From: a virus
DNA length: 33,813 nt
Reading direction: 5' to 3' (one strand)
Virus record (IMG/VR): IMGVR_UViG_3300030503_000155
Made by a program: the position numbers and the translations under genes. The notes under the pieces are model-generated. The model did no database searches. It saw only the letters and a program-made list of their open reading frames with translations, and had not been told where the DNA came from. Below, in pieces: positions 10,617-12,324 of this stretch (its first letter is position 1; each line of letters begins with the position of its first letter).

Positions 10617-12173
10617 TTAATTCTGCCATCTCATGACTAAATTTGTCATATCAACCTCAACTCGTGGCGCCTTATCAGCCAATATCCGATCAGCCGCAAA
10701 TTCCATCAATATATATTGCTCTGCATCTGATATATGCGATGCAAAGTTCTTGTGTGGGACTTCCTTATAACGCTCTTCACCAGACACACTAATACGTTTA
10801 TAAATATAATCCTTTTGCTTGGCCTTACGCAATATCGGACAGCCTTCACGAGATAATATATATGCGGGTTGACCATCCGTCATTTGGTTCAAGAAGTAAC
10901 GCACAGCCCCTATTCGTGGCTCGAGATCATTAGTTCTCCCAGGGTGAGTAGTAATGCCGAGAGAGCAAAGCTCGCCGATGCAAGATAACTCTTCCATAAT
11001 ATCATCCCCAGCAACGCCACTAGGATCACCACGAGAAATCCCAATCTTATTGTACGGAAAGTCAATGGAAAGGGCAGGCAAAACAACATTCTTTGCAAAC
11101 GTTCTAATCCCCATATCTTCACTGGTATATTCCTTTAGTATCCTAATTTGACCACGCGGCGATATCTGCATAACAATACACGCTGGTGTCAATCCAAAGT
11201 CCCATCCTAAATGTATCGGATCGCCTTGTATCGCATGTATCTTGTCTACGCTGTGGATATCATCATTATATTCGGGATAGACTTTTTTACCAAAACCCAC
11301 TGACCCATAGTCTCCAAGACAATACACCTTGGTGAATGCCTCGGTCTGTCCAGTAGCAAGCTTAGTGTAATAATCATGAGCAATGTTATTATAATTGTCA
11401 CAGCGAGGATTTTGATACCATTTACCATTTTCATCTTTCAATAGTCCTGGCGGTTGCTTATATAATCTATACCCTTCAACAGGCTTTTCATCAAATTGCT
11501 TAAAAATCCAATGATCCACATCAGGATAATTGCTATCGGCAATAATGCCGCTCCAATAAGTGCTAGGACAAAAGTTTCGACTAGGATAACGATAATTAAC
11601 ACGACCTTTAAGATGCGAGAGTACACCTTGTGGCACTTCTGATAATTCATTGATGTATGCACCTGTTGCTTCTAATGATTTCAGTTTACGTAGATCATCT
11701 TCACGATCCAATGCAATATAGATTAACTCTAATACGACAATGCCTTCGCCATCATTGAATGTGTGCTCGTATGTCAATAATGGCTTTTGTCGCTTCTTGA
11801 TATCACCCAGCTCACCAAACCACGCTAACCAGGTTTGTAATGTCGTGCTATATAACTCACCTGAAGTATTACGTATTACTAACCATCTGGATCTTCTTTG
11901 CCCGTGAGACCAATTAGGCATACTACATGCTCGTCTAACGATTTCATTAATGCACAATGTTGATTTTCCTGATCCATAAGGCCCCATAACGAGACGCACA
12001 AAATCGCTACCATTATGAAAGTCATTACCAGTAAAAGTGGGAATATATAATTTGTTTTGATCTGATCCATATATGATTGTCTCTTCGCTATTTTTGAAAT
12101 TGATATGTGTAATAGTTTGCTGACGCATCTGTTTCTCAAGTGCTTCTATTCGTAGCTTTGCAGCACTAAGCAT
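10617..12173 (-). CDS. terL: Terminase large subunit
   Basis: 518 aa. Walker A GPYGSGKST, Walker B-like GAYINELSE, and C-terminal RNase-H-like nuclease motifs (HLGWDFGLTPACIV, SRGDPSG). Confidence 0.92.
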   Translation of the reverse strand: MLSAAKLRIEALEKQMRQQTITHINFKNSEETIIYGSDQNKLYIPTFTGNDFHNGSDFVRLVMGPYGSGKSTLCINEIVRRACSMPNWSHGQRRSRWLVIRNTSGELYSTTLQTWLAWFGELGDIKKRQKPLLTYEHTFNDGEGIVVLELIYIALDREDDLRKLKSLEATGAYINELSEVPQGVLSHLKGRVNYRYPSRNFCPSTYWSGIIADSNYPDVDHWIFKQFDEKPVEGYRLYKQPPGLLKDENGKWYQNPRCDNYNNIAHDYYTKLATGQTEAFTKVYCLGDYGSVGFGKKVYPEYNDDIHSVDKIHAIQGDPIHLGWDFGLTPACIVMQISPRGQIRILKEYTSEDMGIRTFAKNVVLPALSIDFPYNKIGISRGDPSGVAGDDIMEELSCIGELCSLGITTHPGRTNDLEPRIGAVRYFLNQMTDGQPAYILSREGCPILRKAKQKDYIYKRISVSGEERYKEVPHKNFASHISDAEQYILMEFAADRILADKAPRVEVDMTNLVMRWQN

Positions 12174-12324
12174 GTTTAGATTCTTTAGGTGGTTTTAGTT
12201 GTTCAAGTGTCGTGAACCGACTGTTGCAATCTTCGCATTCTCTTCGGCGTCTAACTGATCCGTCACGCGTAGGATCAGTATCTAATACCTTGGTGGTAGG
12301 ATAGCTACAGAATATGCATTCCAA
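12166..12324 (-). CDS. NrdR-type zinc-ribbon protein lacking the ATP-cone (52 aa, TTG start)
   Basis: Hand-called: (M)[51 protein letters not shown]. It matches the NrdR N-terminus [30 protein letters not shown]. The stop overlaps the terL ATG by 8 nt. Confidence 0.55.
   Translation of the reverse strand: [52 protein letters not shown]

Follow-up and report, generated by a model that had tools for sequence, protein, structure and literature searches.

A free-standing NrdR-type zinc ribbon encoded directly upstream of the large terminase gene in a clade of phages

What is the DNA-reading head of a bacterial repressor doing, on its own, directly in front of a phage gene for DNA packaging? The question is raised by a stretch of 33,813 nucleotides (nt) from the IMG/VR virus record IMGVR_UViG_3300030503_000155, the whole of which is called the window here. 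A 52-codon open reading frame (ORF) on its minus strand resembles the zinc ribbon of NrdR, the bacterial repressor of ribonucleotide reductase (nrd) operons, and overlaps terL, the gene for the large terminase subunit. The NrdR ribbon has been known only as the DNA-reading head of this one specialised repressor. A first-pass annotation of the window took the small protein to be a nucleotide-insensitive mimic of the host repressor, acting at host nrd operons either as a dominant negative or as a constitutive repressor. We confirm that the ORF is a real gene and that its product is genuinely homologous to the zinc ribbon of NrdR. The gene and its parts, with lengths in amino acids (aa), are as follows.

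12166-12324, minus strand: standalone NrdR-type zinc-ribbon gene without an ATP-cone, 52 aa, TTG start (from the ORF list and the sequence)
12166-12173, minus strand: 8 nt shared by the end of the ribbon gene and the beginning of terL, ATGCTTAG (from the sequence and the ORF list)
12307-12318, minus strand: first zinc knuckle, C3-x-x-C6, which aligns with C3 and C6 of NrdR and is found in every one of the 71 unique family members
12274-12282, minus strand: reading-head positions D15-T16-D17 (D15-S16-R17 in NrdR), from the alignment to 7p37 and 9gex
12241-12252, minus strand: RRRR block, residues 25-28 (R26-R29 in NrdR), with R27 invariant and R28 and R29 present in 69 of 71 family members
12226-12237, minus strand: second zinc knuckle, C30-x-x-C33 (C31 and C34 in NrdR), invariant in 71 of 71
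12202-12219, minus strand: R36-F-T-T-L-E41 strand (R37 to E42 in NrdR), with R37, T40 and E42 invariant in the family

Only the TTG is usable as a start codon, because the frame, as read in the window sequence, opens just four codons upstream, after a TAG at 12339-12337. The ribbon ORF begins one base past the stop of an upstream 63-aa ORF and ends in a TAG at 12168-12166, inside the start region of terL, whose ATG is at 12173-12171. The 52-codon frame, the TTG start and the 8-nt overlap had all been described in the first-pass annotation, and the sequence and the ORF list bear them out.

The product matches the Pfam family PF22811 (Zn_ribbon_NrdR) with E=4.3e-17 and 62.2 bits, against a cut-off of 27.2, over profile positions 1-42 of 42. 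A phmmer search of the Protein Data Bank (PDB) returned the NrdR proteins of S. coelicolor (7p37, E=2.7e-9) and E. coli (E of ~2e-7), with residues 1-42 of the ribbon aligned to residues 1-43 of NrdR across a single gap. By these sequence comparisons the resemblance to NrdR is far above chance. They uphold the homology, at the NrdR offset, that had been claimed for the peptide, and the PDB alignment confirms the E. coli NrdR sequence that had been given in its support.

Structure prediction gives the same picture. An AlphaFold2 (AF2) model built from an alignment of 122 sequences has a predicted local distance difference test (pLDDT) score of 89.5 and three strands, and this predicted ribbon carries C3, C6, C30 and C33 as two CxxC knuckles. 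The model superposes on NrdR, with a root-mean-square deviation (rmsd) of 1.0 Å across 43 columns for 7p37_A. A model computed without the alignment, with a helix and a pLDDT of 56, was wrong and was discarded and the alignment-based one was used instead. When the model was compared with the PDB by Foldseek, the 12 top matches were all NrdR chains, and the next match, the first that is not NrdR, reached only E=0.23. The top structural match, PDB 9a6n, comes from an integrative model in which NrdR is in complex with Soj; a partner of NrdR in chromosome segregation (ParA/Soj) has thus been reported.

The nucleotide sensor of NrdR is missing, as had been noted. Pfam detects no ATP-cone in the ribbon protein, which stops 10 residues past the ribbon, and TIGR00244, the model of full-length NrdR, is matched at positions 1-44 of 147 only, with 46.8 bits against a cut-off of 124.65. 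The protein therefore cannot sense ATP or dATP in the manner of NrdR, and without the cone an NrdR-like control of DNA binding by nucleotide-dependent oligomerisation is structurally impossible. It is a member of PF22811 and not an NrdR orthologue, because it is without an ATP-cone, its reading head has diverged, it shows no linkage to nrd genes and its score falls under the equivalog cut-off. Nor did it match any family of small terminase subunits (TerS) among the Pfam, NCBIfam and PHROGs results.

The gene lies in the late operon, where its neighbours in the window are the following.

10617-12173, minus strand: large terminase subunit TerL, 518 aa (phrog_2 'terminase large subunit', E=1.4e-22)
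12326-13031, minus strand: four small accessory ORFs of 46, 43, 80 and 63 aa between terS and the ribbon gene (ORF list; phrog_2423 and phrog_16160, function unknown)
13003-13431, minus strand: TerS-like protein of 142 aa, whose gene opens the late operon (phrog_4102 'terminase small subunit', E=1.8e-11)

Related phages were sampled through TerL: 80 viral contigs encode a TerL with 57-79% identity to that of the window, and their six-frame ORFs were searched with a hidden Markov model (HMM). Ribbon homologues are present in 76 of 83 clade loci. Among the 69 loci that include at least 1.5 kb upstream of terL, an intact ribbon of 50-67 aa precedes terL in 65, and TerS lies upstream of the ribbon in 60. 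The small ORFs of 46, 43, 80 and 63 aa have homologues in 22, 0, 36 and 34 of these 69 loci, respectively, and are therefore less conserved than the ribbon; ten loci show the bare TerS-ribbon-TerL layout. The distance from the ribbon stop to the terL start is mostly -4 to +6 nt. Relatives usually have an ATG at the same start position, two codons ahead of the first Cys, while a few start with GTG or TTG, including the closest relative (L002, with TTG), and three have no assigned start.

The ribbon gene is under purifying selection, with a median dN/dS of 0.11 over 40 informative pairs, and no copies broken by stops or frameshifts were seen in the relatives. The reading frame proposed in the first-pass annotation thus holds up across the clade, where 65 of the 69 loci have it intact. 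The gene belongs nearly to the core of a cassette of TerS, ribbon and TerL in the late operon and is not a sporadic gene for host takeover.

A profile search of 5.8 billion proteins gave 815 matches at E <=1e-8, the best 120 of which are all 52-70 aa long, many of them on contigs of 34-36 kb. One ribbon protein (P0181) was found in Legionella anisa chromosomes, on 17 contigs. In two L. anisa assemblies, GCA_052568355.1 and GCA_026190775.1 (loci L203 and L204, with the ribbon at 10001-10186), the prophage carries a lambda P-like replication gene, an endolysin gene, TerS, the ribbon, TerL (joined by an ATGA overlap) and a P22 portal and coat. At least one phage of this clade, the rest of which is uncultured, thus has Legionella anisa as its host. 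The G+C content of the window is 39%, which we take to match that of Legionella. Two further contigs with clade phages, JAUZPI010000045.1 and JAGWGO010000062.1 (L201 and L202), one of them genome-sized at 34.3 kb, had been binned into 'Bacillota' and 'Thaumarchaeota' metagenome-assembled genomes; this placement is probably a binning artefact rather than a host signal.

Which parts of NrdR function the family could have kept can be judged residue by residue. In S. coelicolor NrdR a pair of ribbons reads each box and the DNA is kinked by ~90 degrees; R12, R26-R29 and R37 lie on the phosphate backbone, D15 and R17 read bases, and two boxes are read by a tetramer joined through the ATP-cones (PMC9110341). 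The R17A mutant does not bind boxes, and D15A binds DNA strongly and non-specifically (PMC9110341). In E. coli NrdR, R27 and R29 together with E42 of the partner pair the ribbons head to head, and replacing E42 by Ala leaves a monomer without activity (bioRxiv 10.1101/2025.03.28.645925).

A tally of the 71 unique phage ribbon sequences, in NrdR numbering, divides these residues into two groups. No sequence departs from the family at the four Cys, V13, R27, R37, T40 or E42, and 69 sequences retain R28 and R29. Position 12 is R, H, S or K, position 15 is Y, E, K or D, position 17 is R, T, K or D, and position 26 varies as well; many family members have no Asp at position 15. The window ribbon, aligned to the PDB NrdR proteins, has K12, D15, T16 and D17, along with all of the backbone arginines (R26-R29 and R37) and the ribbon-ribbon contact E42. 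The family thus retains the residues for dimerising and for gripping DNA, and not the head that reads NrdR boxes. Given D17 in the window ribbon and the variability of positions 15 and 17, binding at host NrdR boxes is unlikely. With these residues and a fixed place in a late-operon cassette, the earlier proposal of a mimic working at host nrd operons is not supported.

Free-standing ribbons are by no means confined to this clade. A degenerate DNA pattern for RRREC..C..RFTT matched at least 120 viral stretches, 113 loci of which were analysed, and the ribbons among the matches listed are all standalone proteins of 44-172 aa. Beyond the TerL clade they form at least 40 subfamilies that differ in their tails and genomic contexts. 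A 97-aa subfamily (21 loci) overlaps a terS of Sf6 type, one ribbon (L146) lies upstream of another TerL family, and a 44-aa subfamily (L087, L120, L188 and L197) lies between a lambda gpA-type TerL gene and a lambda-type portal gene, a location similar to that of gpW in lambda. Other subfamilies adjoin genes for ThyX, a YfbR-like 5′-deoxynucleotidase, a PD-(D/E)XK nuclease, a deacetylase-like protein or an HNH endonuclease. Directly upstream of a ThyX gene in two loci (L103, at 6926-7165, and L181) stands an 80-aa viral ribbon that keeps the D-S-R reading head (VKDSRQD). This ribbon is a better candidate than the window protein for a binder of NrdR boxes or a regulator of nucleotide metabolism. 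The longer proteins among the profile matches, examined for domain fusions, turned out to be NrdRs, tandem-ribbon proteins or likely assembly chimeras, and no ribbon-terminase fusion was present among those matches.

What might the ribbon in front of terL do? We tentatively favor a reading in which it is a dimeric, nucleotide-blind factor that binds and bends DNA, is made together with the terminase and acts on phage DNA, most plausibly at the start of packaging. Two zinc-bound ribbons are predicted to pair head to head via R27 and R29 with E42, and the homodimer would grip the backbone through R27-R29 and R37 and probably kink a short AT-centred DNA site. It is the conservation of R27-R29, R37 and E42 from which we infer that a homodimer binds and probably kinks DNA. 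Because the base-reading positions have diverged and differ between related phages, the target is most likely phage-specific and not a host NrdR box. Translational coupling to terL would lead to production of the ribbon along with the terminase, and the protein may serve as an architectural or specificity cofactor when packaging begins, much as IHF does by bending DNA at lambda cos. The ribbon stands directly before terL in the whole clade, which makes action on phage DNA likelier than service as a decoy for a host repressor. A more specific form of this proposal, which we consider conceivable but doubtful, is that a ribbon from the same stock as the host repressor has lost its nucleotide sensor and turned into a third terminase component. 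Its dimer would kink a phage-specific site at which TerS and TerL start, and its fast-changing head would set packaging specificity.

Several points weigh against a role in packaging. DNA binding, dimerisation and the packaging role itself are deduced from residues and gene order, a conventional TerS is already present, and we know of no zinc-ribbon terminase cofactor. Three distinct lineages (L008/L009, L052 and L054) keep TerS and TerL without a ribbon, and in four loci 166-722 nt of other DNA lie between the ribbon and terL, so that the ribbon is near-core yet dispensable. Moreover, closely overlapping genes are a general feature of phage operons. In favor of a packaging role, ribbons of unrelated subfamilies also stand within packaging operons, and the divergence of the clade ribbon follows that of TerL more closely than that of TerS (Mantel r=0.63, partial 0.51, significant), although physical linkage alone could account for this co-divergence, from which function is not separable. 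Ribbons next to terminase genes make up 4 of the 40 other subfamilies when counted by lineage, which is not clearly over chance; the association with terminases across lineages is suggestive and statistically not compelling.

Searches for a binding site likewise gave little encouragement. AT-centred palindromes are not enriched upstream of terS, where they occur in 11 of 61 loci against a background of ~0.15 per 210 nt, or in the terS-terL interval, where their density is 0.69 versus 0.72 per kb. Two candidate elements were located in the window.

13450-13485, minus strand: promoter-like site TTGCAA-16-CATAAT just upstream of terS, a candidate operator only (consensus scan)
13450-13464: perfect 15-bp AT-centred palindrome TGCATATATTATGCA on the promoter-like -10 element, single copy

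The consensus scan that gave the promoter-like site upstream of terS was no higher than shuffle expectation, and an AT-centred palindrome like TGCATATATTATGCA appears at least once in 28% of shuffles and so fits chance. The closest relative, L002, has a different single-copy palindrome, TTTGC-aatta-GCAAA, at about the same place, which is also consistent with chance. Repeat finding across the whole window revealed no repeated operator. NrdR boxes are not enriched in the 33.8 kb either, with one match at 3 mismatches versus 0.8 expected. The failure of these searches is a real gap for every model in which the ribbon binds DNA.

The main rival to a packaging factor, which has a real but minor chance of being correct, is a phage transcription factor that acts on phage operators, for example those of the late genes or of its own operon, in the way of Ogr and Delta. 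The NrdR ribbon is itself the DNA-binding head of a transcription factor, and many of the other viral ribbon subfamilies occur in contexts that have nothing to do with packaging. Ogr of phage P2 and Delta of phage P4 are small Cys4 zinc-finger late activators that act on phage promoters, and a Foldseek search of viral models (BFVD) gave weaker matches to zinc fingers of Ogr/Delta type (E of ~0.01, TM 0.67-0.69). Late activators such as RinA are typically encoded close to where early genes give way to late ones or immediately before terS, and the one AT-centred palindrome of the window sits on the promoter-like site upstream of terS. However, the ribbon gene of this clade is itself part of the late operon, where it follows terS and in most loci abuts terL, and an activator encoded there would therefore appear only once the operon was already on. 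Ogr is transcribed apart from the operons that it activates. Moreover, the ribbon family profile shows no significant relationship to P2 Ogr in hhalign (probability 4%, with a supplied Ogr sequence), Pfam gave no match of the ribbon to the Ogr/Delta family PF04606 at E up to 10, and operator-like palindromes upstream of terS are neither conserved nor enriched across the clade. The empty site searches would sit more easily with a small basic protein that binds DNA or RNA non-specifically and condenses or chaperones the genome, or controls terL translation. The small size of the ribbon, its arginine block and its basic tail are in keeping with such a protein, the adjacent small ORFs are very basic, and the non-specific DNA binding of NrdR D15A (PMC9110341) has a parallel in the many family members without Asp15. 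Nevertheless, we think this unlikely, as the window protein retains D15, the invariant dimer contact E42 suggests a defined dimeric complex, and nothing points to RNA binding.

Two remaining explanations, both put forward in the first-pass annotation, direct the ribbon at the host. As a dominant-negative partner of host NrdR, a free ribbon would pair with it via R27/R29 and E42, break the ribbon pairs and derepress the nrd operons. This is structurally conceivable, in that R27, R29 and E42 are kept and the interface residues are invariant or nearly so. No ribonucleotide reductase or other nrd gene was found among the ORFs scanned, which are a part of those in the window, and to that extent they agree with the earlier statement that the phage lacks nrd genes and a polymerase. 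The clade includes a Legionella prophage, and Legionella, as a gammaproteobacterium, is expected to possess NrdR. In addition, infection by an unrelated pneumococcal phage raises the NrdR regulon by a mechanism that is unknown (PMC6755750). Nonetheless, homodimerisation with DNA binding explains the same residues equally well as such a hetero-interaction would. Expression with the packaging motor would be late for a boost in deoxynucleotide supply, the gene stays in the terminase cassette across the clade and not among early genes, and a pure poison subunit would not need strongly kept backbone contacts such as R37. Taken together, these considerations make a dominant negative improbable. A constitutive, nucleotide-blind repressor at host NrdR boxes can be considered very improbable indeed. 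In its favor are the homology of the ribbon to the head with which NrdR binds DNA and the presence of D15 and the RRRR block in the window protein, but position 17 of that protein is Asp, where the R17A mutant of NrdR fails to bind boxes (PMC9110341), and positions 15 and 17 vary across the family. Furthermore, the two-box tetramer of NrdR is joined by the ATP-cones that are missing here, curbing deoxynucleotide synthesis offers a phage no obvious benefit, and the window is not enriched in NrdR boxes.

The remainder of the window is that of a phage with a P22-type head. Bases 1-127 are repeated exactly and in direct orientation at 33687-33813, and the window is therefore a complete genome of ~33.7 kb, circularly assembled or terminally redundant. 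The head module runs along the minus strand through the TerS-like gene, the four small ORFs, the ribbon, TerL, portal, scaffold and coat; also present are genes for head-closure, tail-fibre and ejection proteins, a Sak4-like annealing protein, an O-like replication initiator, SSB, and resolvase-like and endolysin-like proteins. Of the small ORFs in the terS-terL interval, the 43-aa one (12760-12891, minus strand) is rich in Cys (CEEC...CEQC), and its product may be another zinc-binding mini-protein; none of the 83 related loci has a homologue of it, and it matched no family. Among small early ORFs on the plus strand, a 150-nt segment occurs in two copies with 75% identity (14704-14853 and 15573-15722), the first of which overlaps a Cys-rich 66-aa ORF at 14646-14846.

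There is no close relative among cultured phages. Megablast of the region against them gave no match, and tblastn of the ribbon peptide gave distant matches only, of which two are annotated as ybaD 'putative regulatory protein' and the rest are unannotated. The closest cultured TerL proteins, from a Pelagibacter phage, BcepC6B and KL4, are at most 38% identical to that of the window, and none of these nearest relatives has a zinc ribbon upstream of terL. The genes annotated as 'transcriptional repressor' in them were checked and are not ribbons.

The protein family itself is not new. Hundreds of standalone viral ribbons are already catalogued as 'NrdR' or 'NrdR-like N-terminal domain-containing protein', and BFVD holds many such viral proteins of 50-120 aa under the latter name, including one from Achromobacter phage Motura. 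We found no paper on the function of standalone viral NrdR-type ribbons. The statement in the first-pass annotation that no described phage example used in this way was known therefore agrees with the literature searched, but the databases show that ribbons without an ATP-cone are themselves plentiful. What appears to be undescribed so far is the cassette of TerS, ribbon and TerL with its near-core status, the way in which a variable reading head is combined with a DNA clamp and a dimer interface that are conserved, and the breadth of the standalone family in phages, which carry the NrdR ribbon widely as a free-standing module of ~50-100 residues. Automatic names such as 'transcriptional repressor NrdR' are misleading for phage ribbon genes. 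As a partner of the terminase, the protein would be a packaging cofactor of a new kind and would give simple access to pac specificity; were host NrdR its target instead, a new mechanism of host takeover would be at hand. As a small and easily expressed protein with a solved homologous structure, it lends itself to direct tests.

Among known systems, the Ogr and Delta proteins share with the ribbon the character of small phage Cys4 zinc proteins that bind DNA, as the ribbon is predicted to do, and they have a similar second knuckle (C..C...F.T.E). Nevertheless, they show no significant sequence or profile relationship to it, and the likeness in fold is weak. IHF at lambda cosB, where it acts with gpNu1, and the DNA-binding domains of TerS proteins provide the working analogy of a small dimeric bender that may aid terminase assembly, although their folds are unrelated to the ribbon and its own role would follow from synteny only. 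The closest counterpart by far is bacterial NrdR itself (PDB 7P37 and 7P3F from S. coelicolor; 9FXK, 9GEX and 9FVR from E. coli), with which the phage ribbon shares its fold, its register and ~50% identity over 43 residues, including the two CxxC knuckles, the RRRR block, R37, the RFTT.E strand and the E42 dimer contact. It differs from NrdR in having no ATP-cone, and with it no ATP/dATP sensing and no cone-mediated tetramer, and in the place of its gene, which abuts terL in a late operon and is not near nrd genes. The other standalone viral ribbons (in UniProt and BFVD, in phrog_36879 and phrog_10675, and under the IMG name 'transcriptional repressor NrdR') likewise consist of the ribbon only, with lengths of 44-130 aa, and are without an ATP-cone. 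What sets the subfamily of the window protein apart from them is its fixed position directly upstream of one clade of TerL.

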